In this document: positions 836 to 34,261 of the stretch, in pieces
How the letters are laid out: each line of letters opens with the position of its first letter
Numbering within the stretch: position 1 is the first letter of the stretch
DNA from: an archaeon
GTDB taxonomy: Archaea; Iainarchaeota; Iainarchaeia; Iainarchaeales; GCA-2688035
Direction: 5' to 3'
Assembly (NCBI GenBank): GCA_035290965.1
Contig: DATDTD010000071.1
Span: 48,155 to 112,154, forward strand
Length of the DNA: 64,000 nucleotides
The notes under the pieces: model-generated
Databases searched by the model: none
Told to the model about the DNA's origin: nothing
What the model saw: only the letters and a program-made list of their open reading frames with translations
Translations under genes and position numbers: made by a program

Positions 836-2167
836 ATGATTTATATAAGTTTAATCAAATTAATTGTTGGTGTTGCCTTGGGAAAACAGAATCTTGCGTA
901 TTCAGGCTTTATTGACATTGGCTATAAGCCTTCTCCAAAAGACCTTGTTGCGGAATTTTTTCTGGAAAAAGGCAGAGGGGTTTCTTTCAGGGAAGCTGCG
1001 CAGGCAATTGCATCGGAATCAAGCATCGGCACATGGACGGAAATTTCCACAATGAAACCCGAAATAAAAAAAAGCCTTTCTCCAAAAATATTTGAAATGC
1101 GCCCTTACAGCGGAACAGTAAAAATCGCTTATCCAATGGAACTGTTTGAAAAGGGAAACATTCCCCAATTGCTTTCAAGCATTGCGGGAAATATTTTTGG
1201 AATGAAGGAAGCCAAAAACCTGCGCCTTGAGGATATTAATTTTCCCGACGAATACATCAATGCATTCAAGGGACCGAAATTCGGAATCGCAGGAATAAGA
1301 AAAACACTTAACATTTACAACAGGCCGTTGTTGGGCACAATAATAAAGCCGAAACTCGGATTGAATCCAGAAGAGCATGCAAAGGTTGCTTTTGAGGCAT
1401 GGCTCGGAGGCTGCGATTTAGTTAAAGATGATGAAAACCTTACAAGCATGGCTTTTAACAATTTTGAAAGGCGTGTAAAGGAAACTTTGAAAATGCGCGC
1501 AAAAGCAGAGAAAATGACTGGAGAAAGAAAGGCTTACATGGCAAATGTCTCTGCTCCTTACAAGGAAATGGTGCGCAGGGCAAAATTTTTGAAAAAGCAG
1601 GGCAATGAATACGCAATGGTTGACATTGTCTCTATTGGATGGAGCGCCTTGCAGGAACTGCGCAATGAAGAGCTCGGATTGATTCTGCATGCGCACCGCG
1701 CAGGGCACGCTGCCTTTACAAGAAATCCCAAGCACGGAATTTCAATGCTTGCAATTGCAAAGCTATGCAGATTATGCGGACTGGACCAGCTGCATATTGG
1801 CGCAATTTTCGGAAAAATGACTGGTGCAAGGTTTGAAGTGCAAAAAATCGGCGAAGAAATAGAGCACAGAATAGTCAGGCCGAGCATCGGGGGGCACGTG
1901 CTTGCTGAAAACTGGCTTCATTTAAAGCCAATGCTTGCTGTTTGTTCGGGAGGACTGCATCCTGCAAAAGTTCCCGGGCTTGTGAATGCGCTTGGAAAAG
2001 ATATTGCTATACAAATGGGCGGAGGAATTCACGGGCACCCAATGGGAACAATGAAGGGCGCAACCGCGGCAAGGCAGGCAATAGAAGCAGCAGTCCATAA
2101 AATTCCCTTGCACGAATTTGCAAAAAACCATTTTGAACTCCAAGCAGTTTTGAGGCAATGGAAATAA
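836..2167 (+). CDS. rbcL: ribulose-1,5-bisphosphate carboxylase/oxygenase large subunit, form III (archaeal) type. The true start may be the in-frame TTG at 878.
   Basis: Carbamylation/catalytic KDDE motif (LVKDDENL). RuBisCO C-terminal signature GGLHPAKVPGLVNALGKDIAIQMGGGIHGHPMG. Length ~440 aa. A TATA-like TTTATATAA lies at 839-847, inside the ATG-836 model. Confidence 0.85.
   Translation: MIYISLIKLIVGVALGKQNLAYSGFIDIGYKPSPKDLVAEFFLEKGRGVSFREAAQAIASESSIGTWTEISTMKPEIKKSLSPKIFEMRPYSGTVKIAYPMELFEKGNIPQLLSSIAGNIFGMKEAKNLRLEDINFPDEYINAFKGPKFGIAGIRKTLNIYNRPLLGTIIKPKLGLNPEEHAKVAFEAWLGGCDLVKDDENLTSMAFNNFERRVKETLKMRAKAEKMTGERKAYMANVSAPYKEMVRRAKFLKKQGNEYAMVDIVSIGWSALQELRNEELGLILHAHRAGHAAFTRNPKHGISMLAIAKLCRLCGLDQLHIGAIFGKMTGARFEVQKIGEEIEHRIVRPSIGGHVLAENWLHLKPMLAVCSGGLHPAKVPGLVNALGKDIAIQMGGGIHGHPMGTMKGATAARQAIEAAVHKIPLHEFAKNHFELQAVLRQWK
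839..847 (+). promoter_or_regulatory. candidate archaeal TATA box (TTTATATAA) about 30 nt upstream of the in-frame TTG at 878
   Basis: Sequence motif only. Implies a short-leader transcript for the RuBisCO gene. Confidence 0.3.
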
Positions 2168-2927: not shown

Positions 2928-5900
2928 TCATTTTCCAAAGTATTCCTGCCAGTGCTTTATTTCGAATTCTTTTCCGCCTGTTTTTTCAAGGCTGCGGATG
3001 AACAGCTTTGCAAGCTGCTTGTTTGTAATCAATGGAACGTTAAAATCAACTGCGGAACGCCGCAGGGCATACTGCTTTTCAAGCTGTTTCCTGTTGAATT
3101 CCTGCGGAATGCAGATTACAAGGTCGAGAAGGCCTTTTCTCAAAAAAGTTGCAGTGTTGGGCTCTTTTTTTTCATGCTCCTTGAAAACCATTCTGCAGGG
3201 AATTGCATTTTTTTCGAGAAATTTCTGCGTGTGCTCTGTTGCGAACAATGCAAAGCCACGGTTTTTCAGAACTCGGATTTCCTCAAGCAAATCCTTCCTG
3301 TTTTCATCCCCGCTGATGCTTACAAGAATGTTTTTTTCAGGCATTGAAAAACCAGCCGCAATAATGCTTTTGAGAAAAGCGTCCTCAAAGCTTGTTGAAA
3401 GGCACGCCACTTCTCCTGTAGAAGCCATTTCAACCCCAAGAAGAGGGTCTGCCCCCTTTAGCCTGCTGAAGGAAAACTGGGGAGCTTTAACGCCCACAAA
3501 ATCAAGCTCGGGAAACTCTTCAGGCTTCAGGTTTTTTTCACCCATTACTGCCTTTGTGGCTGTTTCAATAAAATTCTTCCCGGAAATTTTTGAAACAAAG
3601 GGAAAGCTCCTGCTTGCGCGCAGGTTGCATTCAATTACCTTTACCTCATTCTGCTTTGCAATGAACTGAATATTGAAGGGGCCGTTAATCTCAAGCTTCT
3701 GCGCGATTTTTTCCCCTATTTCAAGAATCCTGTTCTTTGTTGCGGGATAGGTTTTCTGCGTAGGGAGGACAATTGTCGCGTCTCCGCTGTGCACGCCGGC
3801 ATTTTCAACATGCTCGCTTACTGCATAAACAAGAAGCCTTCCGTCCTGCGCAACTGCATCGAGCTCTAACTCCCTTGCATTCACAATGAATTTGCTCATT
3901 ATTACAGGATGTTCCGGAGAAAGAGCGGTTGCCTTTTTCAGGTATGAAATCAGGTCTTTTTCATTGAATGCAACGCTCATTGCGCTTCCGCTCAAAACAT
4001 AGCTCGGGCGCACCATAACCGGAAAGCCCACCTTGTTTGCAAAAACCACTGCATCTTTTTCAGCTGAAAGCTCTTTCCATTCAGGCTGGTCAATTCCCAA
4101 AGAATCGCAGAGAGCGCTGAACTTGTGCCTGTCCTCTGCAATGTCGATTGTTTCTGCTTTTGTGCCTAAAATTCTTGCGCCGGCTTTCTGAAGCTTCAAA
4201 GCAAGATTGTTCGGGATTTGCCCGCCCATGCTAATGATTATTCCTTCGGGATTTTCCTTTTCATAAATGTCAAGCACTCTTTCAAGGCTGAGCTCTTCAA
4301 AATAAAGCTTGTCGCAGATGTCATAGTCAGTGCTCACTGTTTCAGGATTGAAATTAAGCATTATTGTTTTTTTTCCGAGCTTTTTCAAGGCCTGGATTGC
4401 TGTTACAGAGCACCAGTCGAATTCAACGCTGCTTCCGATGCTGTAACTGCCGCTTCCCAAAACCAGGACCTGGTTTTTTTCTCCAAAGGAAATGTCGCTT
4501 TCAATTGCATTATAGGTTGCGTACAAATAGTTTGTCTGCGCGGGAAATTCAGCTGCAAGAGTGTCAATCTGCTTTATGAAAGGCAGAATCCCTAACTGCT
4601 TTCTTTTTTCCCTTACAACAAGCTCATCTTCACTCCCTGAAAGAATTGCAATCTGCTTGTCGCTGAAACCGAGTTTTTTTGCCTTCAGGAGCAATTCTTT
4701 TTCAATTCCCCTTTCCTTTACCTGTTCTGATGTTGCTATTATGTTTTTTATTTTTTCAAGGAACCATTTGTCTATTTTTGTGAGCGAATGGATTTTTTCA
4801 ATGCTCCAGTTTTTCTGGATTGCCTTTGCAATTGCAAAAAGCCTTTCATCGTTTGGGACTGAAATTTTTTTTTCAAGCCCCTTGAATTCAATGTTGTTTG
4901 CAATAAGGCCATACATTCCAATGTTCAGCATTCTCACTGCCTTCTGGACTGCCTCTTCAAAAGTCCTGCCTATTGCCATTACTTCTCCCACGCTTTTCAT
5001 TTCAGTTCCAATCAGATGATTTGCTTTCTTGAATTTTTTCAAATCCCAGCGCGGCATTTTTACTACAATGTAATCAAGAGCAGGCTCAAAGCACGCCTTT
5101 GTTTTTTTTGTAATGCTGTTTTCAAGCTCGAGAAGGCTGTGCCCCAAGCTGAGCTTTGCGGCAACAAATGCAAGCGGATAGCCTGTTGCTTTTGAGGCAA
5201 GCGCACTGCTCCTGCTTAATCTCGCGTTTACTTCAATAACCCTGTAATCAGAACTTTTTGTGTCAAGCGCAAATTGTATATTGCATTCTCCAACTATTCC
5301 AAAGTGCCTTATTGCCTTTATTGAAAGTTCGCGGAGCATGTGATATTCGCTGTTTGAAAGAGTCTGGCTTGGGGCGACAACAATGCTTTCTCCTGTGTGA
5401 ACTCCTAAAGGATCGAAGTTTTCCATGTTGCATACAGTAATGCAGTTGTCATTGACATCCCTTACAACTTCATATTCTATTTCCTTCCAGCCTGCAAGGC
5501 ATTCTTCAACAAGAAGCTGCGGGCTGACTTTGAAGGATTGTTCCGCGAGCTTTTTAAGTTCTTCCAGATTGTTTGCAAATCCGCTTCCTTTTCCTCCGAG
5601 CGCAAAAGCAGCTCTTACAATTACAGGAAAACCTATTTTGCTTCCTGCAGAGAGGGCTTCTTCAAGGTTTTTTGCGGGAATGCTTTTCGGAACATTTATT
5701 CCGATTTTCCGGAGTTCAAGATTGAACAATTCCCTGTCCTCTGTTTTCCTGATTGCATCAATCTGTGTCCCAAGAACCTTTACATTGTGCTTTTCAAGAA
5801 CTCCAGAATCATGCAGAGCAAGCCCGCAATTGAGGGCTGTCTGCCCTCCGAAACCAAGAAGAATTGCCTCTGGCTTTTCTTTTTCAATTATTTTTTCCAC

Positions 5901-6071
5901 AAACTGCGCGTTCACTGGCAGAAAATAAATTTTGTCTGCAAAGCCCGAGCTTGTCTGGATAGTAGCAATATTTGGATTGACAAGGACTGTCTCAATTCCT
6001 TCTTCCTTGAGAGCTTTTATGGCTTGAGAACCGGAGTAGTCGAATAGACGGTCTAATGGTTTAACAACCAA
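2928..6071 (-). CDS. carB: carbamoyl-phosphate synthase large subunit
   Basis: 1047 aa. Two ATP-grasp halves (…GGQTALN…, …EVNARLSRSSALASKATGYPLA…) and a C-terminal MGS-like domain. Confidence 0.95.
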   Translation of the reverse strand: MVVKPLDRLFDYSGSQAIKALKEEGIETVLVNPNIATIQTSSGFADKIYFLPVNAQFVEKIIEKEKPEAILLGFGGQTALNCGLALHDSGVLEKHNVKVLGTQIDAIRKTEDRELFNLELRKIGINVPKSIPAKNLEEALSAGSKIGFPVIVRAAFALGGKGSGFANNLEELKKLAEQSFKVSPQLLVEECLAGWKEIEYEVVRDVNDNCITVCNMENFDPLGVHTGESIVVAPSQTLSNSEYHMLRELSIKAIRHFGIVGECNIQFALDTKSSDYRVIEVNARLSRSSALASKATGYPLAFVAAKLSLGHSLLELENSITKKTKACFEPALDYIVVKMPRWDLKKFKKANHLIGTEMKSVGEVMAIGRTFEEAVQKAVRMLNIGMYGLIANNIEFKGLEKKISVPNDERLFAIAKAIQKNWSIEKIHSLTKIDKWFLEKIKNIIATSEQVKERGIEKELLLKAKKLGFSDKQIAILSGSEDELVVREKRKQLGILPFIKQIDTLAAEFPAQTNYLYATYNAIESDISFGEKNQVLVLGSGSYSIGSSVEFDWCSVTAIQALKKLGKKTIMLNFNPETVSTDYDICDKLYFEELSLERVLDIYEKENPEGIIISMGGQIPNNLALKLQKAGARILGTKAETIDIAEDRHKFSALCDSLGIDQPEWKELSAEKDAVVFANKVGFPVMVRPSYVLSGSAMSVAFNEKDLISYLKKATALSPEHPVIMSKFIVNARELELDAVAQDGRLLVYAVSEHVENAGVHSGDATIVLPTQKTYPATKNRILEIGEKIAQKLEINGPFNIQFIAKQNEVKVIECNLRASRSFPFVSKISGKNFIETATKAVMGEKNLKPEEFPELDFVGVKAPQFSFSRLKGADPLLGVEMASTGEVACLSTSFEDAFLKSIIAAGFSMPEKNILVSISGDENRKDLLEEIRVLKNRGFALFATEHTQKFLEKNAIPCRMVFKEHEKKEPNTATFLRKGLLDLVICIPQEFNRKQLEKQYALRRSAVDFNVPLITNKQLAKLFIRSLEKTGGKEFEIKHWQEYFGK

Positions 6072-6139
6072 AAAGACTTTCGCCCGCTTCCCCGATTTTC
6101 AAGGCACCGCTTCCAAGAATCAATACCTTTTTTGGCTTT

Positions 6140-7354
6140 TCAATAGGCTGTCACCTCTTTTATTTTCCAGATTATTGCCCGGTTAGGGGCTGTTTTTCCA
6201 ATTTGTTCCACAAGATTCTTTACTTCAAGCTGTTTTAATTTCTTTAATGTTTTTTGAACGCTGAAGTTTAGTTCATTAGCAATTCCTGATGTGGATGCGG
6301 AATTTCTTTTAAGGCATTCTATTATTTTTTGTCTAAATCTGTTTTCTTCATGCTTAGTGTATTTCGTTGCTTTAGTGGCAAGTTTTTCTAGTTTCAAAAA
6401 CTTTTTGCCTGAGCACAGCCCGATGTTTTGATAAAAATTTGTGATACTATACTGGTCTGTAATATTTAGGTACATTACGCAGTGTCGCCCGTCAACTTTA
6501 GTATAATACCTTGAAATAAGCGGTTCCCCTGCGTTAATATCGAATTCTTTTAACAACTCTTTTATCTGGCTTAAAAGCATCCTTAAAGAATCTGCAATTG
6601 ATTCATGCCTTGTTTGATAAAGATTAACTCCCTTTGCCCTAAATGATTTCGAATACATTACCGAACCGTCATCATCAAATATTGCTTTGAGGAAAGCCTT
6701 TTTGCAGGGCTTGCTGCCGTTCATAATCCAGGCAGGAACCAAATTTTTATTATAAATTTTGGGGGCTTGTGGAGCGCCAAATTGCAGCAGTATTTCGCCG
6801 ATTATCGAGGGATACCCTATCCGCGTGTTATTTTTTGTATAGGGCTTAATCCCAAACTGTTTCTCAACCAGTTCTTCAACCTCACACAGCAGTAAACTGT
6901 TTGTGTTGCTATATTCAAACTGCCTTCTTCTTGAACAAACAAACCCATCTCCAAAAACATGCCCAACCAATGAAGCAATATCCTCGTTTCCAGTTATTGG
7001 CAATTTTGTTTTTAATGAAAGCCCGGCACGTGTTTTTATCTCTTTAATATTTTTTTCAACCAGCTCCAGATTCAAATTTGCAAGTTCTGAGAGTTTAACC
7101 AATATTTTTTTAGGAATCGAATATTCAGACCTTTTCAGGCAGATGACAAAAGGATATGAAACCCCTAATTTTTCTGCAAGCGCATAATAATTTCCATTGC
7201 TCGCCTTTTCAGCAAGTTCTTTGCAAAATTGTTCCTCAAGAATGAATCTTGCAGAATCTGATAATTCCCAGAAATGCATTGTCTTTTGCATAGTTCTAAA
7301 TAATATTTTTTTTATTTTAAAACTGTTTCGGGACAGCAGATTTCCGCTAATCAT
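6140..7354 (-). CDS. free-standing LAGLIDADG-type homing-endonuclease-like protein with N- and C-terminal HTH/winged-helix domains
   Basis: Two LAGLIDADG-like motifs (LVGHVFGDGFV and LKAIFDDDGSV). N-terminal HTH (YALAEKLGVSYPFV), C-terminal wHTH. Its start overlaps the carA stop (ATGA). Confidence 0.65.
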   Translation of the reverse strand: MISGNLLSRNSFKIKKILFRTMQKTMHFWELSDSARFILEEQFCKELAEKASNGNYYALAEKLGVSYPFVICLKRSEYSIPKKILVKLSELANLNLELVEKNIKEIKTRAGLSLKTKLPITGNEDIASLVGHVFGDGFVCSRRRQFEYSNTNSLLLCEVEELVEKQFGIKPYTKNNTRIGYPSIIGEILLQFGAPQAPKIYNKNLVPAWIMNGSKPCKKAFLKAIFDDDGSVMYSKSFRAKGVNLYQTRHESIADSLRMLLSQIKELLKEFDINAGEPLISRYYTKVDGRHCVMYLNITDQYSITNFYQNIGLCSGKKFLKLEKLATKATKYTKHEENRFRQKIIECLKRNSASTSGIANELNFSVQKTLKKLKQLEVKNLVEQIGKTAPNRAIIWKIKEVTAY

Positions 7355-8439
7355 TTTTTTCCCTCTGCTATTTTCAAAAACTTGTCAAACAAAAAACCCG
7401 TATCCAAAGGCCCGGGATTTGCTTCTGGATGGAACTGCACGCTCATGAATGGCTTTGTTTTGTGCCGTATTCCCTCGTTTGTTCCGTCATTCAGATTTCT
7501 GAACCAGGGTTCCCATTCCTCTGAAAGTTTTTTTTCGTCAACTGCAAATCCGTGGTTCTGGCTTGTAATAAAGCATTTTTCCGTTCCCACAACAGTGCAG
7601 GGCTGGTTCTGGCTCCTGTGCCCGTATTTCAATTTGTAAGTGTCTGCTCCCGCGGCAAGAGCTAAAATCTGGTTTCCCAAACAAACGCCAAAAACAGGCT
7701 TTGAATATTCAAGGGCTTTTTTTATTGTTTCAATTGTAGCAGTGCATTGTTTGGGATCGCCAGGACCGTTGCTTATCATTATTGCGTCAAAATCAATTTT
7801 GCCGTTGAACAAATCAAAATCCCAGGGCACCTTGATTACTGAAGCGTTTCTTTCCAAAAGGCAGCGCACAATGCTGTTTTTTGCCCCGCAGTCAATGAGC
7901 GCGATTTTTACACCGCTGTTCTCATGAAAAATAGGTTCTCTGCAACTGACGTCAGCCACAAGGTTTTTTTTGTTAGGATCATTAAAAACTATTTCTTCGC
8001 CATCGAGCACAATCTTTCCTAACATTACTCCTTTTTCGCGGAGTTTTTTTGTGAGCGCCCTGCAGTCAATGCCAGTGATTGCGGGAATTTTTTCCTCGCG
8101 AAGCCATTCCTGAAGGGATTTTTCAGAGTTCCAGTGATTATGCTCAAAGCTGTAATCAGAAACAATCAATCCTTGTGCATGAATCCTGCTGCTTTCAAAG
8201 TTTTTTTCAAGATTGGATTCAAGGGCTTTGCCGGGAACACCATAATTTCCTATCAAAGGGTAGGAACAAACAAGAATCTGCCCCTCGTAACTCGGGTCTG
8301 TAAGGCTTTCAGGATAGCCCACCATTCCAGTGTTGAAAACAACTTCCCCTGAAATGCTTTTTTCAAAGCCAAAAGAAATTCCTGAAAAAACAGAAGAATC
8401 TTCCAAAACAAGTTTAATGCTTTTTTCTTGTTGCCGCAT
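7351..8439 (-). CDS. carA: carbamoyl-phosphate synthase small subunit (glutamine amidotransferase)
   Basis: Class I GATase triad region (GVCLGNQILALAAGA…HG) and the CPSase small-subunit N-domain. Confidence 0.93.
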   Translation of the reverse strand: MRQQEKSIKLVLEDSSVFSGISFGFEKSISGEVVFNTGMVGYPESLTDPSYEGQILVCSYPLIGNYGVPGKALESNLEKNFESSRIHAQGLIVSDYSFEHNHWNSEKSLQEWLREEKIPAITGIDCRALTKKLREKGVMLGKIVLDGEEIVFNDPNKKNLVADVSCREPIFHENSGVKIALIDCGAKNSIVRCLLERNASVIKVPWDFDLFNGKIDFDAIMISNGPGDPKQCTATIETIKKALEYSKPVFGVCLGNQILALAAGADTYKLKYGHRSQNQPCTVVGTEKCFITSQNHGFAVDEKKLSEEWEPWFRNLNDGTNEGIRHKTKPFMSVQFHPEANPGPLDTGFLFDKFLKIAEGKK

Positions 8440-17328: not shown

Positions 17329-18714
17329 TTACAGCCGCAGCTCTTTTTTCCAGTGCTCAACAATCTGCACTGTTTTCTTTTCAGCAAAGCCGGTATATTT
17401 TTCAGGATTCTCAAGAATTTCAAGCTGTTTTTTAGAAAACTTTTTCAAAAAAGGCTTCAATGATTCTTCCTGCATAAAAATTTCCTGCAAAGGCTTTTTC
17501 TCAGCCTGGGATTTCAAAGTAAGCTTTCTCACTTCCTCATGCGCATCTGAATGCCCGTGAAAGGCAAGCAGAATGTAAAGCGGCTCTGCAATTAACAAGC
17601 CCTTGCTCTTGTTGAAATTTTCCTGCATGTTTTTTTTGTCAACAGCCATTTTTGCAACAACTTTTTCAAGGCGCTTTGCGCTCAAAATCAATGCGGCAAT
17701 TAGTTCTGGCAAAAATCTCTGCGAAGCGCTGTTAGTCAAATCGCGCTGATGTTCAGAAATTTGATCTAAGTAAACAGTGTTCATGCGCGGCATAAACTGT
17801 TTCCAGAAGCTTTTCACATTTTCAAAATTAATGGGATTTCTTTTCTGCGGCATTGTGCTGCTTCCGACCTGCTTTGCCTCGAACTCTTCCCCAACCTCTG
17901 CAATTTCGCTTCTCTGCAAATTGCGCATATCATCGGAAAAATTTGCAAGCACTCCAAAACAGGAAACGAGCGCATGCATTAAATCAGCCATTGGCTCTGC
18001 TTCCACAATCTGAGTGCTCGAAACGCTTGCCTTCAGGCCGAGCTCCTGCATTATTTCTTTTTCAAATTCAACGGGGTTTTCAAAAAAAAGGCTGCTTGCA
18101 TTATAAGCGCCAACTGCGCCTGAAAATTTTCCGCACAAATTATTTTTTGCATTCTCGATTGCCTTTATCCTGCTGCCAAGCCTGCTTACATAGGAGGCAA
18201 CTGCAAATCCAAAGGTAATTGGTTCAGCATGCTGTCCGTGGGTTCTTCCAATCTGAACTGTTTCTTTTTCCCTCAAAGCAAGCTGCATGAATGTTTTTTC
18301 AAGCTCCAAAAGCGCGGGAATAATTGCCTGCTCTGCAGCATCCTTGAAACGCAGAGCGTTCGCAGTATCGACAATGTCATAGGAAGTTGCGGAAAAATGC
18401 ACAAAGGGCTTTGCTCTTTCGCTTACTTTTGCGCGAATGCAGTTCGCAAGCGCGCGGATGTCATGCTTTATCCTGTCTTCTTCCGCATAAACCTCTTCGG
18501 CAGTAACCTGCAGAGAGGCTTTTTCTATTTCATCAGCAATTTCCTTTGAACAGAGATTTTTTTTTGCAAGGACTTTTACAAGCGCAGCCTCTGTTTTTGC
18601 AAAATATCTTATGCGCGCATTTTCAGAAAGAAAAGGCTTTAAAGATTCAAAGATTTTTGAGTCTCTCCCGTAATAGCGGTAATCGAGAGGGCTGATGTTG
18701 TCGAACAAATCCAT
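17329..18714 (-). CDS. purB: adenylosuccinate lyase
   Basis: Fumarate-lyase signature GSSTMPQKRNPINFEN. Confidence 0.92.
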   Translation of the reverse strand: MDLFDNISPLDYRYYGRDSKIFESLKPFLSENARIRYFAKTEAALVKVLAKKNLCSKEIADEIEKASLQVTAEEVYAEEDRIKHDIRALANCIRAKVSERAKPFVHFSATSYDIVDTANALRFKDAAEQAIIPALLELEKTFMQLALREKETVQIGRTHGQHAEPITFGFAVASYVSRLGSRIKAIENAKNNLCGKFSGAVGAYNASSLFFENPVEFEKEIMQELGLKASVSSTQIVEAEPMADLMHALVSCFGVLANFSDDMRNLQRSEIAEVGEEFEAKQVGSSTMPQKRNPINFENVKSFWKQFMPRMNTVYLDQISEHQRDLTNSASQRFLPELIAALILSAKRLEKVVAKMAVDKKNMQENFNKSKGLLIAEPLYILLAFHGHSDAHEEVRKLTLKSQAEKKPLQEIFMQEESLKPFLKKFSKKQLEILENPEKYTGFAEKKTVQIVEHWKKELRL

Positions 18715-18721
18715 TGAAAGC

Positions 18722-19678
18722 TCACTTTGCCAAAAATTTTTTGTATGCGTTCACGCATTCTTTTATGCTCGGCACTTTCCAGTTTTTTTCTCCTGTCCAT
18801 GCGACTGTAACTGATTTGTACATGTTGCTTACTATTTCAATTAGCTCTTTCGGAAGCGCGGGAGGGACAGTATAATTTCCTTTTCCTTTGCCTTGGGTTT
18901 TTTCCTTTTCAATTATCGCATACCAGGGAGTTTTCTTGTAATAATCCCGCAGAACCTGCTTGCTGATGTGAAAGCCGTTGAACAAAAACCTGTCCTCATC
19001 AAGAGTTCCGGAAACATCCACGAGAATTAATTCGTTTTCAGGATTTAATCCGAATTCTACTTTGCCATCGGCATGCTCAAGCATGATTTTTTTCGCCTTC
19101 CTGTTCAAAAAACCGTTTATTTTCAAAGCCGTTGCTTTCAGTTCTTCAATCTGTTTTTTTGACAGGGCGGAAAGCTGCCTTGCTTCTTCCCATCCCATGT
19201 ATCTGTCTGTTGCCTCCAACTTTGTGCTTACATCCATTATCGGCTTTGAAAGCTTTTCACCGGGAACAGGCTTTTTTTTCAGCCCCAAAGATTTCCAGTC
19301 CAATTGCCCTGAATCAATTCTTTTGAAAACACTGCTTCCCTCAGGGAGAGAATTCCTGTAAATGACTTCAAGCGGAACAAGATAATTTTTCATGCCGGGC
19401 AAAAGCTCGCCTTTCTGCGGATACAAAACGCGCACTAAATCAACTTCCATCTTGCTTCCCGAAACAAGCCGGCGGAAATGGCTTTTTATGCCGAGCTTTT
19501 TCAGCTGCTGGAAATTATATGAAGCCATTCTGCACAATGCCTCTCCCTTCCCTGGAATTTCATCCGGCATTTTTCCATAATCGAAAACACTGTAATCATC
19601 GGTGAAAGTAAAAATTCCCATTCCCGATTCCTTTTCTGTTGCAGGCTTTGTTATTTCCAGATCCTTTACGCTTCCCAA
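18722..19678 (-). CDS. purC: phosphoribosylaminoimidazole-succinocarboxamide (SAICAR) synthase, long form
   Basis: N-terminal SAICAR synthetase motif (GSVKDLEI…FTDDYSVFDYG). 318 aa. Confidence 0.85.
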   Translation of the reverse strand: MGSVKDLEITKPATEKESGMGIFTFTDDYSVFDYGKMPDEIPGKGEALCRMASYNFQQLKKLGIKSHFRRLVSGSKMEVDLVRVLYPQKGELLPGMKNYLVPLEVIYRNSLPEGSSVFKRIDSGQLDWKSLGLKKKPVPGEKLSKPIMDVSTKLEATDRYMGWEEARQLSALSKKQIEELKATALKINGFLNRKAKKIMLEHADGKVEFGLNPENELILVDVSGTLDEDRFLFNGFHISKQVLRDYYKKTPWYAIIEKEKTQGKGKGNYTVPPALPKELIEIVSNMYKSVTVAWTGEKNWKVPSIKECVNAYKKFLAK

Positions 19679-19748
19679 AAAATCACCTCGTATTTTTGTT
19701 AGTTTTAGTGCTTAAACTTATTTAATATTTGCCAAAGTTTAATGTGCC

Positions 19749-20201
19749 TTAATAAAGCCCCCTATTTTTTCTTACGCTTCTTATCCATTCCAAATCCAGC
19801 TTAGCTGTTTGAATTGCTGTTTGTAAGAGTTTTGTTAAAGAATCCAATGTTGGTTTTGCATCCGCATATCTGGACGCGTTTTTTTTGTACTTTCGCAGGT
19901 TTTCCAATCCATGTTCAAACTCATATAACGCTTCCGACAAGACTGTTTCAGCCCCATTTATTTTTTTTATGTCGGACTCTGTTTTTTCCAGTTCTTTGGC
20001 GACAATCTCTTTTTGCAGCTTGACAGCAGGCAGCAATACTTTTAATTTTTTATTTAGAACCATTATCCTGCTTTGCCTGCCGTACAAAGCAGACGACATT
20101 CTGTTGAGGCGCCTTCTTCTGTCAGCTATTTTATTTTTCAATTCTTCCGAAGGCTGTTTGCTTTTTCCTCTTCCAAACCATTTTTTGAACATTTCTTCCA
20201 A
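19749..20201 (-). CDS. hypothetical coiled-coil protein (150 aa)
   Basis: Long ORF with heptad-like charged pattern. No recognisable catalytic motif. Confidence 0.4.
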   Translation of the reverse strand: MEEMFKKWFGRGKSKQPSEELKNKIADRRRRLNRMSSALYGRQSRIMVLNKKLKVLLPAVKLQKEIVAKELEKTESDIKKINGAETVLSEALYEFEHGLENLRKYKKNASRYADAKPTLDSLTKLLQTAIQTAKLDLEWIRSVRKNRGLY

Positions 20202-20214
20202 CCTTTGCTTTTTC

Positions 20215-21027
20215 TCATTTTGTTTTTTTCACGGCAAGATTTTTCCTGTATTCAAGCAATTTTTTTGAAAAAGAATTATCCGAAACGTTCAGGAGCCCGA
20301 CTGCGGCAAGCGCGGAATTTTCAAGCCTGTTCAAGCCAACCCAGATTCCTGTTCTTGTTTTCTCAAGAAGTTTCTGCGCATCAAAAGAAGTGCTCTTTTC
20401 AAGAAGAGGAACGTTAATTGCAAAAAAATCTTTTGAATCAATGCCGTGCTCCGAGGAAAGCTCCACAAAATTTATTCCAAGCTCGCGGTTTTTGAGGGAA
20501 TCAAGGCTTTCAACTGTTTCAAAAGCCGCGCCGAAACTTTGAAGGATCTCGAGCATTTTTGAAAATTTCTGCCCGAAAACTGCTTCTTCAAAATTTTTCG
20601 TTATTGTGATTTTTTCAAAGCCGTTAACTGCAATGCCTGCTGCGCACGCTGCTGTTTCCACTGCATTTACTCCTGTTCCGAGAACGGGAATTCCGGAAGG
20701 CATCTGGTGCACTGAAAGCAATGCATCCAAGCCCGAATAATTGCCTTCAACAGGCAGCCCGATTACAGGCTTTAGCGTCTGCGAGGCAATTACTCCCGGG
20801 AGAGCGGCACTCAAGCCAGCGCCGGCAATAATGACTTTTGCCTTTGAAGAGGAAATGATTTTTTCAAGTTCCTTTGGATTCTTGTGCGCGGAACAGATTT
20901 GAAGCTCCGCCTCCACATTTTTTTCTTTCAGAGCAAGCATTAGTTTGTCAAAAACAGGAGAATCAGATTCAGAACCAAAAACAACCAGGACAGTTGCAGG
21001 CATAACAAGAACTCCTAAGAGCAACAA
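20215..21027 (-). CDS. purE: PurE (AIR carboxylase / N5-CAIR mutase family) with ~110-aa C-terminal extension
   Basis: VLVVFGSESDSPVF…SAHKNP…IIAGAGLSAALPGVIA…PVIGLPV…SVHQMPSGIPV. Confidence 0.85.
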   Translation of the reverse strand: MLLLGVLVMPATVLVVFGSESDSPVFDKLMLALKEKNVEAELQICSAHKNPKELEKIISSSKAKVIIAGAGLSAALPGVIASQTLKPVIGLPVEGNYSGLDALLSVHQMPSGIPVLGTGVNAVETAACAAGIAVNGFEKITITKNFEEAVFGQKFSKMLEILQSFGAAFETVESLDSLKNRELGINFVELSSEHGIDSKDFFAINVPLLEKSTSFDAQKLLEKTRTGIWVGLNRLENSALAAVGLLNVSDNSFSKKLLEYRKNLAVKKTK

Positions 21028-21067
21028 CTTTTAATATTCTTTGTTTTCTTAATTTCTTGGGGTTTTT

Positions 21068-24055
21068 TTGGCACTGCAGAGGATAGAAGTAAGCACCTTG
21101 AACGACACAAGGGAAATTGTAAAGAAAAAAAACCTTTCAGGAATCGGCTTTAAGGTCGAAGGCGTAAAGCTCAACGATGTCTACACAATTGAATCTGATT
21201 TGAAAACAGCAGAGCTTGAGGAATGCGCAGAACTATTGCACAACCCTGTTTCTCAGAAAGCAGAAATCGGAAAGCCGATTGCCCCGAAAAGCTTTGATTA
21301 CTGCATTGAAACAGGATTTCTGCCGGGAGTAACAGACAACATTGGAAACACTGCTTCGGAACTCATAAAAGACTTTTTCAGGGCAAAAGGAAAAGAAATT
21401 TCCGCACGCGTTTATTATTCGCAGGAAATGTTTCTCAGGGGAAAACTTTCTTTGGAAGAGGCAAAAAGCATTGCTGAAAGCAGCGCAAACCCGCTTATTC
21501 AAAGGATTCACATCAAGAGCAAAAAAGATTTTTTAGCTGAAAAAGGAATGCCCGCGGTTGCGCCGAAGGTAAAACTTGAACAGTCACAGGAAATAAAGGA
21601 AATAGATTTGAATTTAAGCGAGGACGCGCTTGCAAAAATCGGCAAGGCGGGAATACTTGAAAAAACAGATTCAGAGGGAGAAAAAAGAAACGGCCCGCTT
21701 GCGCTTGATTTGGAATCAATGAAAACAATCAAAGAGCATTTCAACAAATTAGGAAGAAAGCCCACGGATATTGAACTTGAAAGCTTGGCACAGACCTGGA
21801 GCGAGCACTGCAAGCACACAATTTTTGCCGCGGAATTGGATGAAATAAAGGGCGGATTGTACAAGGAAAGAATCCGAAAGGCGACTGAAACAGTAAGGCA
21901 GAAAAAAGGCAAAAAGGATTTCTGCGTTTCTGTTTTTGTAGACAATTCAGGGGCAATAAAATTCTCCGAAGAATGGCTTGTAACAGACAAGGCGGAAACA
22001 CACAACAGCCCTTCGGCGCTAGACCCTTTTGGTGGTGCAATAACAGGAATAGTGGGAGTAAACAGGGATGCAATAGGATTCGGAAAAGGCGCAAAGCCGA
22101 TTGTGAACAGGTATGGCTTCTGCTTTGCAGACCCAAAGGATATCAAGGCGCTTTACAAGAGCAAAAATAAGCAGAACAAAATGCTTTCTCCAGAAAAAAT
22201 AATGCTCGGAGTAATAGAAGGAGTGAATGTCGGGGGAAATTGCTCGGGAATTCCAACTCCGCAGGGATTCATGTATTTTGACGAGAGATATAAGGGAAAG
22301 CCGCTTGTTTTTGTAGGCACAATCGGATTGATTCCCAAAAAAATAAACGGAAAGGATTCGCATGAAAAAACAGCAAAGGCGGGAAATACAATTGTAATGG
22401 TCGGCGGAAGAGTTGGCTTGGATGGAATTCACGGCGCGACTTTTTCTTCGGAAGCGCTTTCATCAGGCAGCCCTGCAACCGCTGTCCAGATTGGAGATCC
22501 TATTACACAGAAAAAGCTGAGCGATGCAATTGTAAAGGAAGCAAGGGATTTGGAATTGTTTGAAAGCATTACTGACAATGGCGCGGGAGGATTGAGCTGT
22601 TCTGTTGCAGAAATGGCAAAAGAATGCAACGGCTGTGTTGTAGAGCTTGAAAAAGTTCCCCTGAAATATGCGGGAATGCAGCCATGGCAGACATGGATTT
22701 CCGAAAGCCAGGAAAGAATGACTCTTGCAATTCCAAAGGAAAAAGTTTCCGAATTTCTCGCACTGATGGAAAAGCGCGGAGTAGAGGCAACAGCAATCGG
22801 AGAATTCACTGATTCGGGAAAATGCATTGTGAAAAGCAACGGCAAAGAAATAATGAACATTGACCTTGAATTTTTGCATGACGGCCTGCCGAAAAAAAAA
22901 CTCTCTACAAAAGAAATCCTGCAGGAATTTTCAGAGCCAATTTTTGAAGAACCAAATATTGGAATTGCCTTAAAGGAAATGCTTTCAAGGCTGAATATCT
23001 GCAGCAGGGAATTTGTTTCAGCGCAGTATGATTTTGAAGTCCAGGGAAACTCTGTGCTGAAGCCATTGCAGGGAAAAGGAAAAGTAAATGCAGAGGCAAG
23101 CGCAGTAAGGCCTGTTCAGGAATTAAAAAATGCCTTGGGGGTTTCACAGGCGCTCTATCCCGCTTACGGGGACATCGACACCTACTGGATGGCTGCATGC
23201 GCAATTGATTCAGCAATAAAAAATCTGGTTGCAATAGGCGCAAAGCAGGAGAACATTGCCCTGCTTGATAATTTCTGCTGGTGCAGCAGCAATGATTCTG
23301 AAAGATTATGGCAGCTGAAAAAATCCGCGCAGGCATGCCTTGATTTTGCAGTCGGGTTTGAAACTCCTTTTATTTCGGGAAAAGACAGCATGTTCAATGA
23401 TTTTCAAGGGTATGATGAAAACAACAATCAGGTAAAAATTTCAGTTCCGCCTACTTTGCTGATAAGCTCTCTTGCGCAGATAGAAAATTCTGAAAACTGC
23501 GTTTCAATCGATGCAAAAATTGCAGGCGACTTGATTTTTGTGCTGGGCGAAACAAAAAACGAGCTGGGAGCAAGCGAATATTTTTCTTACATGGGAAAAA
23601 AGCTTTCGGGAAAAAGATTCATTGGCAAAAATGTTCCAAAGGTTGAAATTGAAAAAGCAAAAAAATTGTACAATGCCTTGAACAAAGCGATTGAATCAGG
23701 GCTTGTGGCAAGCTGTTATCCTGTCGGATTGGGAGGATTGGGAATTGCAATTGCAAAAACATGCATTGCAGGCTCTCTGGGGGGAGAAATTTTCCTTGAA
23801 AAAATTCCTGCGGAAAAAATGCGCGGCGATTATATTCTGTTTTCAGAATCACAGAGCAGGTTTATTGCAACCATAAATCCCGCACACAGGGAAGCGTTTG
23901 AAAAAATTTTCAGGGACAATAAATGCGCGTTCGCTGAAATAGGAAAAATAACAGAAGAAAAAAAGCTTGTAATAAATGCAAACAGCACAAAACAGTTTTC
24001 AATGCAGATTGTGGAGCTTGAAGAGGCATACAAAAAAACACTGAGGGATTACTAG
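21068..24055 (+). CDS. purL: FGAM synthase II (PurL) with extended N-terminus containing PurS-like repeat(s)
   Basis: 995 aa. Two PurM-like domains. The N-terminal ~150 aa contain two …L(L/S)ANP(V/L)I(Q/E)… stretches resembling the PurS C-terminal motif. Confidence 0.88.
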   Translation: MALQRIEVSTLNDTREIVKKKNLSGIGFKVEGVKLNDVYTIESDLKTAELEECAELLHNPVSQKAEIGKPIAPKSFDYCIETGFLPGVTDNIGNTASELIKDFFRAKGKEISARVYYSQEMFLRGKLSLEEAKSIAESSANPLIQRIHIKSKKDFLAEKGMPAVAPKVKLEQSQEIKEIDLNLSEDALAKIGKAGILEKTDSEGEKRNGPLALDLESMKTIKEHFNKLGRKPTDIELESLAQTWSEHCKHTIFAAELDEIKGGLYKERIRKATETVRQKKGKKDFCVSVFVDNSGAIKFSEEWLVTDKAETHNSPSALDPFGGAITGIVGVNRDAIGFGKGAKPIVNRYGFCFADPKDIKALYKSKNKQNKMLSPEKIMLGVIEGVNVGGNCSGIPTPQGFMYFDERYKGKPLVFVGTIGLIPKKINGKDSHEKTAKAGNTIVMVGGRVGLDGIHGATFSSEALSSGSPATAVQIGDPITQKKLSDAIVKEARDLELFESITDNGAGGLSCSVAEMAKECNGCVVELEKVPLKYAGMQPWQTWISESQERMTLAIPKEKVSEFLALMEKRGVEATAIGEFTDSGKCIVKSNGKEIMNIDLEFLHDGLPKKKLSTKEILQEFSEPIFEEPNIGIALKEMLSRLNICSREFVSAQYDFEVQGNSVLKPLQGKGKVNAEASAVRPVQELKNALGVSQALYPAYGDIDTYWMAACAIDSAIKNLVAIGAKQENIALLDNFCWCSSNDSERLWQLKKSAQACLDFAVGFETPFISGKDSMFNDFQGYDENNNQVKISVPPTLLISSLAQIENSENCVSIDAKIAGDLIFVLGETKNELGASEYFSYMGKKLSGKRFIGKNVPKVEIEKAKKLYNALNKAIESGLVASCYPVGLGGLGIAIAKTCIAGSLGGEIFLEKIPAEKMRGDYILFSESQSRFIATINPAHREAFEKIFRDNKCAFAEIGKITEEKKLVINANSTKQFSMQIVELEEAYKKTLRDY

Positions 24056-24856
24056 ATGCCAAAAGCGCTTGTATTGACTGGATATGGAATCAACTGCGAG
24101 GAAGAAACAGCGCTCGCTTTCAGGAAAGCGGGAGCACAGGCAGAAATCGTTCACATCAATGATTTGATTGAAAAGCCTGCGAGATTAAAGGAATTCAATA
24201 TTCTCGCTTTTCCGGGGGGATTTTCCTATGGCGATGACACTGGAAGCGGAAATGCGCTTGCAAGCAAAATCCGCAGCAATATCTGGAACCAGATACTTGA
24301 ATTCATTGAAGCAGAAAACCTTGTAATCGGGATCTGCAATGGTTTCCAGGTAATTGCAAACTTAGGGTTAGTTCCCGGATTCAAAAAAAATTACGGCGAA
24401 AGAAAAATCGCACTGATGCACAACAATACTGCGAGGTATGAATGCAGATGGGTCTCATTGAAGGGGATTTCTAAAAAATGCGTTTTTACAAAGGGAATTG
24501 AAACAATCCGCCTGCCTGTTGCGCACGGAGAGGGAAAGTTTTTCGCACCTGCAAAAATACTTGAAAAGCTCAATGCCCAGGAACAAATTGTTTTCAGGTA
24601 TGCAAATGAAAATGGCGCACTTGCGGAAGGAAAGTTTCCCGAAAATCCGAACGGGGCTCTTGAAGACATTGCGGGAATCTGCAATGAAACAGGAAAAGTT
24701 TTCGGTTTAATGCCGCACCCTGAAAGAAACATTTTCTTTACACAGCAGGACAACTGGCTATTGCAGAAGGAAATTCTCCTGCGGCAGGGAAAAAAGCTTC
24801 CCGAAGAAAGCGCAGGAATGCGGATTTTCAGGAATGCAGTTGAATATTTCAAGTGA
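24056..24856 (+). CDS. purQ: FGAM synthase I, glutaminase subunit
   Basis: Class I GATase (GICNGFQ…HGEG). Starts 1 nt after the purL stop. Confidence 0.9.
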   Translation: MPKALVLTGYGINCEEETALAFRKAGAQAEIVHINDLIEKPARLKEFNILAFPGGFSYGDDTGSGNALASKIRSNIWNQILEFIEAENLVIGICNGFQVIANLGLVPGFKKNYGERKIALMHNNTARYECRWVSLKGISKKCVFTKGIETIRLPVAHGEGKFFAPAKILEKLNAQEQIVFRYANENGALAEGKFPENPNGALEDIAGICNETGKVFGLMPHPERNIFFTQQDNWLLQKEILLRQGKKLPEESAGMRIFRNAVEYFK

Positions 24857-26663: not shown

Positions 26664-26664
26664 A

Positions 26665-27204
26665 TTATTTTCTTCTGCGATCGCGCATTTTTCTGGCAAC
26701 GTAGTCCCGGGTGCGCTTGGTGGCAGTTGAAATTTTGTAACGATACGGCCTTTTCCAACCCATGGGCACCAGCATTTTACGCATGATAGTGGTGGGAGAC
26801 GTCCCAAAACTGATTTTGAAGGAAGGGAACAGTTCTTTTGTTTCTTTTAAAACCCGGAAAAATGCAAATGCGCCGATTCCTTTGCGGCCAAAAATTTCGT
26901 CAGGGTGTTTTGATTCTCCTTTCACGCTTATCTTGTCTTCCCCAAAAGGATAAAACCACATAAACTTGATTTTTTTCTCTTTTTCATGAATACGCAATTC
27001 GACGCTGCCCAAATTTTTTCCAATCCACTCAGAGTTTCCCTGAATCCATTCCTGAAAAGCCGGCGTTGTGACAAACAATCCTTCAGCCCCTTTTTCAAAA
27101 GGCCCGAAATGTGTTTTGTAGCACAAACGGTCGTCGCCCTTATACCCGGGTTTTTCGGCTTCATAATCCGGAACAATCCACAACCCCAAAACCTGTTTGC
27201 GCAT
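26665..27204 (-). CDS. hypothetical protein. Probable start at an internal Met (MRKQVLGLW…); the longer ORF runs to 27351.
   Basis: ORF only. The hydrophobic N-terminal extension of the long ORF looks non-coding. Confidence 0.4.
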   Translation of the reverse strand: MRKQVLGLWIVPDYEAEKPGYKGDDRLCYKTHFGPFEKGAEGLFVTTPAFQEWIQGNSEWIGKNLGSVELRIHEKEKKIKFMWFYPFGEDKISVKGESKHPDEIFGRKGIGAFAFFRVLKETKELFPSFKISFGTSPTTIMRKMLVPMGWKRPYRYKISTATKRTRDYVARKMRDRRRK

Positions 27205-27272
27205 ACTAATCAATACGATTGAGAGATTAAAAAATGTTTTGACATGTATTTTCAAAAGGAAGCGAAAAAACA

Positions 27273-28352: not shown

Positions 28353-28401
28353 AACAGGTTTTTAAAACCAAAGCAAAGTAGTATTTACAAGTTTTGAGGG
28401 T

Positions 28402-29679
28402 ATGCTTATGGCAAAAAAACAGAAGCTCTATGAAATGCATCTCAAGGCAGTCGAGAAATTTGATTCAGAACTTTTCAACGCAGTTGTTTCCGAAAAAGAA
28501 AGGCAGATGTCTGGAATTGAACTTATTCCAAGCGAAAACCTTGTAAGCTCGGCAGTGCTTGAAGCCCTTGGAAGCGTTGCAACAAACAAGTACTCCGAAG
28601 GATACCCTGCAAAAAGATATTACGGGGGAAACGAATTCATTGACGTAATTGAAAACCTTGCAATTGAAAGGGCAAAAAAACTTTTTAGTGCGGAACACGT
28701 GAATGTACAGCCGTTAAGCGGTTCTCCTGCAAATATGGCAATGTATTTTGCGCTCATGGAAATAGGGGAAACATTCATGGGAATGAAGCTTACAGAGGGA
28801 GGGCATCTCACTCACGGGCATCCTGTGAATTTTTCGGGAAAGCTTTACAAATGCGTCCAGTACGGCGTGGATAAAGACACTGAAATGCTTGATTACGATG
28901 CAATAAAAAAAATTGCAATTGAAACAAAGCCGAAAATAATTCTTTCAGGATACACCGCATATTCAAGGGCAATTGATTTCAAGGCATTCAGGGAAATCGC
29001 GGATGCGAGCGGAGCATACTGCTGCGCAGACATTGCTCACATTGCGGGATTGTGCGCTGCTGGCGTGCACGAGAATCCTGTTCCTTATTTTGATGTAGTA
29101 ACAACTACAACGCACAAAACCCTTAGAGGGCCGCGCGGCGCAATGATAATGTGCAAAAAAGATTTTTCAGAAAAAATAGACAAATCTGTTTTTCCCGGTT
29201 TGCAGGGCGGCCCGCATGAAAACGTGATTGCTGCGAAAGCCGTTGCTTTCAAGGAGGCAATGCAGCCCGCATTCAGGGATTATGCCTCACAGATTGTAAA
29301 GAATGCAAAGGCGCTTGCAGAATCCTTGATGGGAAAAGGACTGAGGCTTGTTAGCGACGGGACAGACAATCATTTAATGCTTGTTGATGTTTTTGAAAGC
29401 AAAAAAATAACGGGAAAACAGGCGGAACATGCGCTCGAGCTTGCGGGAATTTACTGCAACAAGAACACTATTCCCTTTGACACAAGAACTCCATGGGATC
29501 CCAGCGGAATCAGGATCGGAACTCCTGCAATCACAACGCGCGGAATGAAGGAAACACACATGAAGGAAGTTGCCGGCTTTATTGTAAAGGCGCTTGACAA
29601 TTCAAGCGATGAGGCAAAGCTCGCGCTTGTAAAGGCGGAAGTAAAGGAATTCTGCAGACAGTTCACTTTCTACAAGTAA
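28402..29679 (+). CDS. glyA: serine hydroxymethyltransferase
   Basis: PLP-lysine region [17 protein letters not shown]. Confidence 0.93.
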
Positions 29680-34252: not shown

Positions 34253-34261
34253 ATAACTGCT

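Follow-up and report, generated by a model that had tools for sequence, protein, structure and literature searches.

In the literature that was searched, splicing of archaeal messenger RNA (mRNA) precursors is documented for very few genes: the evidence rests on cbf5 of Crenarchaeota plus one Haloferax mRNA that serves as a cleavage substrate (PMC2738675, PMC7714728), and reviews as well as a 2025 structural paper on the splicing enzymes cite only cbf5 for this process. How short introns of the bulge-helix-bulge (BHB) type (defined in PMC7714728 and PMC5829648) spread, being too small to encode an endonuclease, has been an open question (PMC2738675). In phages, collaborative homing has been described, in which an intron interrupts the target of the endonuclease (PMC6083498, PMC2790892, PMC3984707). 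Here we analyze the carA–carB locus, which encodes the two subunits of carbamoyl-phosphate synthase (CPSase), in a 64-kb stretch of DNA from an archaeon of the Iainarchaeota (contig DATDTD010000071.1; this whole stretch is called the window below). At this locus, a free-standing LAGLIDADG homing endonuclease gene is followed by a carB gene that is split by a 34-nucleotide (nt) insert resembling a BHB mini-intron.

The pre-mRNA intron of cbf5 in Crenarchaeota (Watanabe, 2002; Yokobori, 2009, PMC2738675) is likewise a BHB-type intron of 16–44 nt in an archaeal protein gene, is gained and lost among lineages, and causes gene-prediction errors (PMC2738675). However, it is found in Desulfurococcales and Sulfolobales, has no associated endonuclease, and is too short to encode one (PMC2738675), whereas the carB intron occurs in DPANN archaea and is linked with a neighboring endonuclease gene, and in some genomes another intron lies 23 nt upstream of it. 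In archaeal ribosomal RNA (rRNA) introns with the LAGLIDADG enzymes I-DmoI and I-PorI (PMC2738675; PMC6125680), a BHB-type intron and a LAGLIDADG endonuclease also act together, but there the open reading frame (ORF) lies inside the intron. In carB it lies upstream of exon 1 and is not flanked by a conserved BHB, and the host gene is protein-coding.

Cyanophage F-CphI with the psbA intron, and also T4 mobE with the I-TevIII intron of nrdB (PMC6083498, PMC2790892, PMC3984707), resemble the carB locus in that a free-standing endonuclease lies beside a conserved gene with a short ORF-less intron and the two are co-inherited. The phage introns, however, are self-splicing group I ribozymes and the phage enzymes are not of the LAGLIDADG type, whereas the carB host is a cellular archaeon, in which cleavage and immunity are predictions. 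Since the carB inserts (16–39 nt) are far too small for a ribozyme and have the shape of an archaeal BHB substrate, they would depend on the transfer RNA (tRNA)-splicing enzymes of the host. The T4 mobA/gene 60 cassette with its 50-nt bypass insert (bioRxiv 10.1101/2022.08.31.505936, PMC7026636) similarly combines an endonuclease gene with a stop-containing gap in a neighboring essential gene, which is neutralized by host machinery. There the gap is skipped by the ribosome via matched take-off and landing codons, whereas carB has no such match and its pairing points to RNA splicing. A search of the full-text literature, with subscription-only papers outside its scope, returned no work linking LAGLIDADG proteins, carbamoyl-phosphate synthase and archaeal introns, and no BHB intron in a DPANN protein gene. 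carB would join cbf5 as the second archaeal protein gene known to have an intron of this type, and its intron would be the first one linked to an endonuclease. We consider it probable, though by no means certain, that a composite selfish element has settled at the 5' end of carB, made up of the free-standing endonuclease and a BHB mini-intron that splits its probable target. Collaborative homing, with a protein-spliced archaeal intron in place of a ribozyme or ribosomal bypass, is by analogy the best-supported model.

Organization of the carA–carB Locus

All coordinates are positions in the window, and carA, the endonuclease ORF and carB are all encoded on its minus strand (Table 1). The order on this single strand is carA, endonuclease, carB exon 1, intron and carB exon 2, with stops and starts overlapping. 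The endonuclease ATG overlaps the carA TGA as ATGA, as an earlier first-pass annotation of the sequence had pointed out, and carB exon 1 and the endonuclease stop codon share 3 nt (6144..6142) within ATTGA. Exon 1 is encoded in a frame other than that of the endonuclease. The 34-nt insert (AGTCTTTTTGGTTGTTAAACCATTAGACCGTCTA) lies sixty-odd bases 3' of the endonuclease ORF, where carB is most highly conserved, with the GEAGE codons on one side and the FDYSG codons on the other; it holds a TAA and shifts the frame between the carB exons, exon 2 resuming at 6044 with FDYSGSQ. Since the CarB N-terminus at 6144..6079 lies in the other frame and is cut from FDYSG by a stop-bearing, frame-shifting insert, carB is a split gene.

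Table 1. Features of the carA–carB locus, listed in the direction of transcription.
Feature	Position	Strand	Evidence
carA (carbamoyl-phosphate synthase small subunit, 362 aa)	8439..7351	minus	Pfam CPSase_sm_chain 2.7e-50, GATase 5.4e-54
Free-standing LAGLIDADG homing endonuclease ORF (404 aa)	7354..6140	minus	Pfam, homologues, AlphaFold2, Foldseek
LAGLIDADG motif 1, LVGHVFGDG (aa 129–137; catalytic-position Asp D136)	6970..6944	minus	Alignment and model
LAGLIDADG motif 2, LKAIFDDDG (aa 222–230; acidic D227–D229)	6691..6665	minus	Alignment and model
Shine-Dalgarno-like GAGGTGA within the 3' end of the endonuclease ORF	6157..6151	minus	Sequence; 6 nt 5' of the proposed exon-1 start
carB exon 1 (22 codons, canonical CarB N-terminus)	6144..6079	minus	Translation; peptide contiguous with FDYSG in 80/80 uninterrupted carB
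Putative bulge-helix-bulge mini-intron, 34 nt, AGUCUUUUUGGUUGUUAAACCAUUAGACCGUCUA	6078..6045	minus	Insert in 26/26 loci, covariation and fold
carB exon 2, FDYSGSQAIKALKEEG to stop, 1038 codons, otherwise intact	6044..2928	minus	Pfam CPSase_L_D1/D2/D3, ATP-grasp, MGS

The first-pass annotation had placed the ORF between the two CPSase genes. This holds for the order and the strand, with carA upstream and carB downstream, but carB is not intact but split, and the interruption by a BHB mini-intron alongside the endonuclease had been overlooked. The distance of "only 68 bp to carB" was counted from a TTG at 6071, the carB start chosen by the ORF caller, which lies inside the insert. The endonuclease ORF adjoins carB exon 1 and not an intact carB, and the supposed spacer therefore consists of exon 1 and part of the insert. 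No other split gene is seen on the ORF map of the window, no tRNA or rRNA was detected in it, and no Rfam family attains its gathering score anywhere in it.

Co-occurrence of Insert and Endonuclease

Related loci and homologous proteins were collected and are given L and P numbers, respectively, where they have to be told apart. An insert of 16–39 nt is present at the same carB boundary in all 26 endonuclease-bearing loci with downstream sequence (19 of them distinct), which come from Woesearchaeota, Diapherotrites and Nanoarchaeota; in a 27th endonuclease locus, L005, the sequence ends within the insert. The insertion site directly follows the Glu codon that ends G(E/Q)A(G/A)E and precedes the FDYSG Phe codon, except in L012, where it is found one base later. 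An insert is absent from all 80 carB loci retrieved with the CarB of the window, which read LGSGALKIG(E/Q)AGEFDYSG uninterrupted. The loci compared came via the endonuclease or via the window's CarB. Two of the 80 insert-free loci, L020 and L023, are labeled archaeal, and inspection of their carA–carB interval revealed no endonuclease there. In L020 (Candidatus Iainarchaeum), whose CarB is 75% identical to that of the window, the carA TGA overlaps carB's own ATG as ATGA. Comparison of the carA–carB junctions thus shows the endonuclease gene to be present in some and absent from other closely related carB alleles.

Exon 2 is an intact ORF of 954–1075 aa in 12 of the 13 complete related loci (1038 aa plus stop in the window). 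The NCBI-derived gene calls are empty over the approximately 3-kb carB region in L001 (6233..9648), L002 (6314..9848), L003 (6218..9241), L108 (4733..7940), L110 (4802..8170) and L111 (4380..7575). The region is empty in these six assemblies because annotation pipelines presumably reject the gene as broken. A lone in-frame TAG (IQTS*GMADKIYF) is found at codon 33 of carB exon 2 in L003, at about position 6384, the sole case among the 13 complete loci; it may be a sequencing error, early decay or something else.

Bulge-Helix-Bulge Structure of the Insert

To describe the pairing of the insert, a register was set from the exon boundaries of the protein alignment only and was not fitted to structure. 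In this register, the central helix joins four exon bases located two bases ahead of the 5' junction to four intron bases located two bases ahead of the 3' junction, and intron bases 2–5 pair with intron bases -10 to -7. In the window, the central helix is formed by exon GGCG (6084..6081) with intron CGUC (6050..6047), and the intron stem by GUCU (6077..6074) with AGAC (6054..6051), plus GGUU/AACC. Each junction has a bulge, which is 3 nt by construction of the register: A-R-A on the 5' side, and UA, AA, AU or AC plus exon U on the 3' side, with the junctions after the second bulge base (AA before A and UA before U in the window).

In tRNA introns at position 37/38, the 4-bp helix takes up bases 32–35; one bulge comprises bases 36–37 with the first base of the intron, and the other the final two intron bases with base 38. 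The predicted geometry of the carB insert is that of such a canonical archaeal tRNA intron. Since neither the window nor 23 related loci contain an intron-containing tRNA that could serve for calibration (the single tRNA in the related loci is intron-less), the bulge geometry was taken from standard tRNA numbering.

Among 18 distinct sequences, pairing was observed in 99.3% of 144 cells, compared with 39–52% when the register was slid by 1–3 columns, and no shuffle reached the observed pairing. Compensatory changes on both sides were found in six of the eight pairs, a result matched by 2 of 500 shuffles, and the covariation score was 0.727 versus 0.243 in shuffles (0 of 500 reaching the observed value). 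The central helix is paired in 100% of cells, with covariation, while the intron-side outer helix h', present in all loci, is 98.6% paired with all four pairs compensatory. The central helix tracks the exon codons: it is GGCG:CG(C/U)C in the GEAGE type, GCCG:CGGC in L009 and L011, GCUG:CAGU in L013 and, shifted, CUGA:UCAG in L012. In the last of these (6204..6225), the intron has moved by one base, to lie between GAAU and UCGAC, and the CUGA/UCAG central helix is perfect.

The BHB is the unconstrained minimum-free-energy structure in 12 of the 19 loci and lies at most 2.4 kcal/mol off in the rest; for the window the difference is at most 0.4 kcal/mol, with a local fold z of -2.7. Cuts after the second bulge base would join GEAGE to FDYSG in frame in all 19 distinct loci, including L012, where both cuts are shifted by one base. 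The predicted joined-exon sequence in the window is AAAATCGGGGAAGCGGGCGAA followed directly by TTCGACTACTCCGGTTC.

The sequence flanking the insert is unusually uniform at synonymous sites. Within 18 nt of the insert, 15 carrier alleles from the GEAGE clade show an identity at third codon positions of 0.72 on one side and 0.62 on the other; the value drops to 0.30–0.49 deeper in exon 2, and in the 80 non-carriers it is 0.31–0.44 throughout. Either a constraint imposed by RNA structure on the flanking exon sequence or co-conversion over short tracts, or a combination of the two, would fit this pattern.

Some other explanations of the interruption were tried and rejected. An endonuclease ORF lying within its own large BHB intron can be discarded, as the GCUGUC/GACAGC found near the start and end of the ORF is absent in L103 and L099 and no in-frame BHB can be drawn. 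A group I intron is incompatible with the 34-nt length of the insert and with the lack of any Rfam match in the window. Recoding of TGA would not rescue the frame, because carA ends normally at TGA and the insert also holds a TAA.

A second insert of 29–34 nt is present 23 nt upstream of the main one in L002 (6372..6400), L004 (~6191..6224), L104–107 (~4689..4718 in L104) and L110 (~4860..4890). One exon base separates this insert from the Ala codon of GSGA, and its fold combines a long intron stem with a central helix of 3 bp that has an outer mismatch. Covariation is seen between this helix and a synonymous GGU/GGC change in the exon (UGC:GCA versus CGC:GCG), and splicing at the standard positions would yield GSGALKIG.

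The Endonuclease Protein

The 404-aa ORF with two LAGLIDADG-like motifs, recognized in the first-pass annotation, is borne out by the sequence and by a Pfam LAGLIDADG_3 (PF14528) match to aa 217–312 (E = 7.4e-12; 45.8 bits versus a cut-off of 22.5). Pfam detects the second LAGLIDADG domain only; the first is visible in the alignment and in the structural model. The protein consists of a disordered segment (aa 1–19), an N-terminal helical, helix-turn-helix (HTH)-like region (~aa 25–110), the two LAGLIDADG domains and a MarR-like winged helix (aa 334–400). The flanking HTH/winged-helix domains, also proposed earlier, are seen by Pfam only as weak C-terminal matches (HTH_24 and PF0610-like), which gain support from the AlphaFold model and from a C-terminal profile match to winged helices of the MarR/ZitR kind.

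In 33 aligned homologues with 32–68% identity, D136 and G137 of motif 1 and D228 and G230 of motif 2 are invariant, and D227 and D229 are kept in at least 90%; D229 is lost in one family member, P0016, and the subgroup P0022–P0031 is without the C-terminal winged helix. The family is thus not one of conserved HTH regulators that lack the endonuclease residues. The AlphaFold2 model (pLDDT 89.8, pTM 0.83), in which disorder is limited to residues 1–19 and the last three, shows two halves of the alpha-beta-beta-alpha-beta-beta-alpha type, with motif 1 at the end of helix 124–134 and motif 2 ending helix 215–229. Foldseek ranks the Tli VMA intein and PI-SceI endonuclease domains highest (E = 8e-9 to 5e-6), ahead of the bI3 maturase, all with a probability of 1.00. 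From sequence and model, the protein looks like an intact and apparently active double-motif LAGLIDADG homing endonuclease.

PI-SceI and the Tli/Pho VMA intein endonucleases are the closest solved folds to the core and are of the same Pfam LAGLIDADG_3 type. Unlike these intein endonucleases, the present ORF has no Hint splicing domains, is not an in-frame insertion in a host protein, and has its own start and stop. It begins with MISGN and ends with VTAY and a stop, in a frame that differs from that of carB exon 1; with the wrong termini and the wrong frame, an intein can be rejected, in agreement with the earlier description of a separate ORF in its own frame.

There are 41 homologues, mostly 44–69% identical and ~400 aa long, and those with a taxonomic name belong to Woesearchaeota, Diapherotrites, Nanoarchaeota and "ainarchaeum", which makes the host a DPANN archaeon. 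On related contigs they always lie after carA, sometimes with a small ORF between, and before carB exon 1. In P0020, P0024, P0033, P0034 and P0040 (e.g., L104, 3501..4700, and L007), the endonuclease ORF runs in frame through carB exon 1 and stops inside an intron, such that the spliced product would be an in-frame endonuclease–CarB fusion unless translation starts internally; in loci of this kind, splicing may decide between endonuclease and CarB from a shared transcript. Distant LAGLIDADG/HTH proteins with 25–30% identity are encoded in L014 (83..1138), L015 (4731..6065), L016 (3693..4745) and L017 (853..1605), in none of these cases beside carB or any obviously split gene.

Proposed Mechanism and History of the Locus

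In the proposed mechanism, carA, the endonuclease and carB would be co-transcribed, the host tRNA-splicing endonuclease (EndA) would cut both bulges, and RtcB would ligate the exons. Removal of the stop-containing, frame-shifting insert would restore a normal CarB, which would be translated from its own Shine-Dalgarno element and a near-cognate ATT within the 3' end of the endonuclease gene. The endonuclease would cut intron-less carB alleles at or near the exon junction; in the carrier genome, the recognition site would be split by the intron and the carrier hence protected. Repair of the cut allele from the carrier could then copy the intron and the adjacent endonuclease gene by co-conversion, i.e., by collaborative homing. 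Indirect hints of target splitting are provided by the uniform synonymous sites within 18 nt of the insert and by two loci with duplicated exon-1 footprints.

These two loci are L102 and L002. In L102 (2538..2600), an old carB exon 1 is fused in frame to the N-terminus of the endonuclease and shows many synonymous differences from the working exon 1 downstream, while L002 (4954..5003) has a similar second, truncated exon-1 copy upstream of the endonuclease. To judge from their sequence, the duplicated copies look like the footprint of an insertion event. The endonuclease ORF also begins at the ATG that is carB's own start in the empty allele L020. The resemblance of its disordered N-terminus (MISGNLLSRNSFKIKKILF in the window; MTSGTVLFRKCFKIKKSMF in L099) to the old CarB start of L020 is suggestive only.

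Carriers and non-carriers interleave in a neighbor-joining tree of CarB, with L020 as a sister to L099 and L023 inside the L008/L108 group. In L012 (4860..6160), an endonuclease copy with 36% identity is frameshifted over two frames and is probably decaying, while the intron remains.

Several points weigh against the composite selfish element. The target of the endonuclease is one that we infer. The exon-side helix h closing the 3' bulge is a single A-U or G-U pair, followed by an asymmetric internal loop and then a 5–8-bp exon helix, CGGAG/CUCCG; because of this single pair before the internal loop, the motif is of a relaxed HBh'-like and not of the strict hBHBh' form, in which outer helices of at least 2 bp close both bulges. 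Strict-type EndA cuts relaxed motifs poorly, and relaxed motifs need a broad-specificity EndA (PMC5829648); insert-bearing EndA types are common in DPANN archaea (PMC5829648). EndA and RtcB are not among the genes of the window (43 ORFs scanned over 64 kb). A search of 5.8 billion proteins returned no spliced-junction protein or contig, and since the closest uninterrupted CarB is only 77% identical, there is no cDNA-like record among them. Plausibly archaeal non-carriers number only two to five of the 80, so that the negative carB set is mostly bacterial, and the absence of the endonuclease was checked directly in L020 and L023 only. Furthermore, distances between the endonucleases are correlated with those between the CarB proteins (Spearman 0.66) and their trees are much alike in outline, which argues that much of the history is co-divergence. 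A single ancient insertion that was inherited vertically and precisely lost a few times could account for much of the distribution; in that case, the long persistence of an intact endonuclease needs recurrent homing or a host function. Finally, exon 1 of the window has no standard start, since the first in-frame ATG, GTG or TTG is the TTG at 6123.

The likely start of exon 1 is the near-cognate ATT at 6144..6142, with the TTG at 6123 as a possible alternative. In both the window and its closest relative L103 (2262..2290), ATT GAR AAR CCA follows six bases after a GAGGTGA/GGAGGCGA element. The ATT is not a sequencing error, because the frame and the ATT are kept between the window and L103 despite synonymous changes. 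The equivalent codon is GTG in L099, TTG in L001 and L003, ATG in L102, and ATA, ahead of PKRQDIKK, in L012. The start codon lies 6–9 nt after a Shine-Dalgarno-like element in the 3' end of the endonuclease gene, and a GGAGG/GAGGT-type element was found by pattern at the equivalent place in 12 of the 19 distinct endonuclease-bearing loci, and in more by eye.

Alternative Explanations

The first-pass annotation had left the choice between a selfish insertion that persisted in the operon and a domesticated endonuclease acting as a DNA-binding regulator. A domesticated LAGLIDADG host factor, which would regulate carA–carB or help the carB transcript, with the intron as a fixed relic of its arrival, would be in keeping with the two accessory DNA-binding-type domains that flank the core, with the constant position after carA (ATG overlapping the carA stop in the window, a small ORF between in several loci), with an ORF that stays intact across lineages only 44–50% identical, with the correlated endonuclease and CarB distances, and with the bI3 maturase among the structural matches. 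However, the catalytic aspartates, needless for a pure binder, are kept in both motifs, and close relatives do well with carA joined directly to carB. One copy is frameshifted, P0016 has lost D229, a whole subgroup is without the C-terminal winged helix, and the constant accompaniment by a target-splitting insert would be left unexplained. We therefore regard domestication as unlikely; the Asp residues, the fold, the presence and absence of the gene, the duplicated carB 5' ends and the frameshifted copy fit a selfish insertion better. Less probable still is that endonuclease and intron are independent of each other, the intron being old in the carB lineage and the endonuclease aimed at, e.g., the carA–carB junction. 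The deduced nature of the target leaves room for this, the endonuclease ORF does start exactly at the former carB start and hence sits at the carA/carB junction, and the second intron site 23 nt upstream suggests a region that accumulates introns. Yet the two-way co-occurrence is perfect in the loci examined (26/26 versus 0/80) and the pairing spans two CarB clades only ~53% identical, L023 is nested among carriers but lacks both parts, and the persistence of the L012 intron beside a decaying endonuclease is as expected of a linked pair late in its cycle.

We give very little weight to the possibility that the insert is not spliced at all, but is bypassed by the ribosome as in T4 gene 60, or that translation begins further downstream, e.g., at the TTG at 6071, to give a CarB that lacks the first 22 residues. 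In the T4 mobA/gene 60 cassette, a homing endonuclease is already known to be paired with a short stretch inside a coding sequence that goes untranslated (bioRxiv 10.1101/2022.08.31.505936), and a stop codon follows soon after exon 1 in most loci, but the take-off codons GAA/GAG find no match among the codons preceding TTC (CUA, CAA, UUA, UAA, CAU, UAU, UAC). Moreover, the insert length varies with the helices alone conserved, and it is precisely the pairs of a splicing-endonuclease substrate that covary. As to a truncated CarB, the window insert does have the in-frame TTG used by the ORF caller, but most loci have no start codon in the insert, and the LGSGxxxIG segment, kept in all 80 uninterrupted homologues, would be lost. 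It is similarly far-fetched that carB is a decaying pseudogene, killed by the LAGLIDADG insertion, or an assembly artefact. The uncalled carB regions in L001, L002, L003, L108, L110 and L111, the in-frame TAG at exon 2 codon 33 of L003 and the missing ATG, GTG or TTG at the head of exon 1 in the window would be explained in this way. However, 26 loci that were assembled independently and come from several phyla share this interruption, exon 2 is intact with all CarB domains in 12 of 13 complete loci, the protein sequence of exon 1 is kept with synonymous changes between relatives, and the insert structure shows compensatory changes.

Implications for Archaeal Introns

The carB locus adds to cbf5 a second gene family from a different archaeal group, with 19 independent sequence variants and a candidate driver adjoining. 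It makes directly testable whether BHB introns are mobile, whether interrupting the target protects the carrier, and which substrates the DPANN splicing endonucleases accept. Whether BHB introns in general are driven into archaeal protein genes by free-standing homing endonucleases acting in trans, with host splicing neutralizing them and carB as the first of a wider class, is in our judgment evenly balanced. If this is true, some DPANN or other archaeal genes called pseudogenes or missing would be intron-containing and functional. For carB, which is uncalled in at least six NCBI assemblies, metabolic reconstructions of these DPANN genomes would wrongly score pyrimidine and arginine precursor synthesis as absent.

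Further Observations

The CarB of the window is 69–75% identical to CarB of Bacteroidota, Aminicenantes and Ignavibacteria (L019–L098 compared) and ~53% identical to the GQAAE-type CarB of the DPANN loci L011–L013, which suggests transfer of carB between bacteria and DPANN archaea. The small contigs L019, L022 and L026, which have a window-type carB and are binned as bacteria or Methanosarcinales, may be misbinned.

Elsewhere in the window, an Eco57I/MmeI-like fused restriction-modification gene (872 aa) and then a DDE_Tnp_1 transposase gene (410 aa) are found at 53112..57175, with unusually long non-coding gaps of 212–295 nt; this region may be a mobile island. Large CARDB proteins are also encoded in the window. 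A RuBisCO large-subunit gene is located at 836..2167, and a nearly complete purine/folate cluster at 17329..37236 comprises purB, purC, purE, purL, purQ, guaA, purM, glyA, guaB, folD, purN, purH, purA and purD. Together, the RuBisCO and purine/folate genes represent an unusually rich biosynthetic set for a DPANN archaeon.

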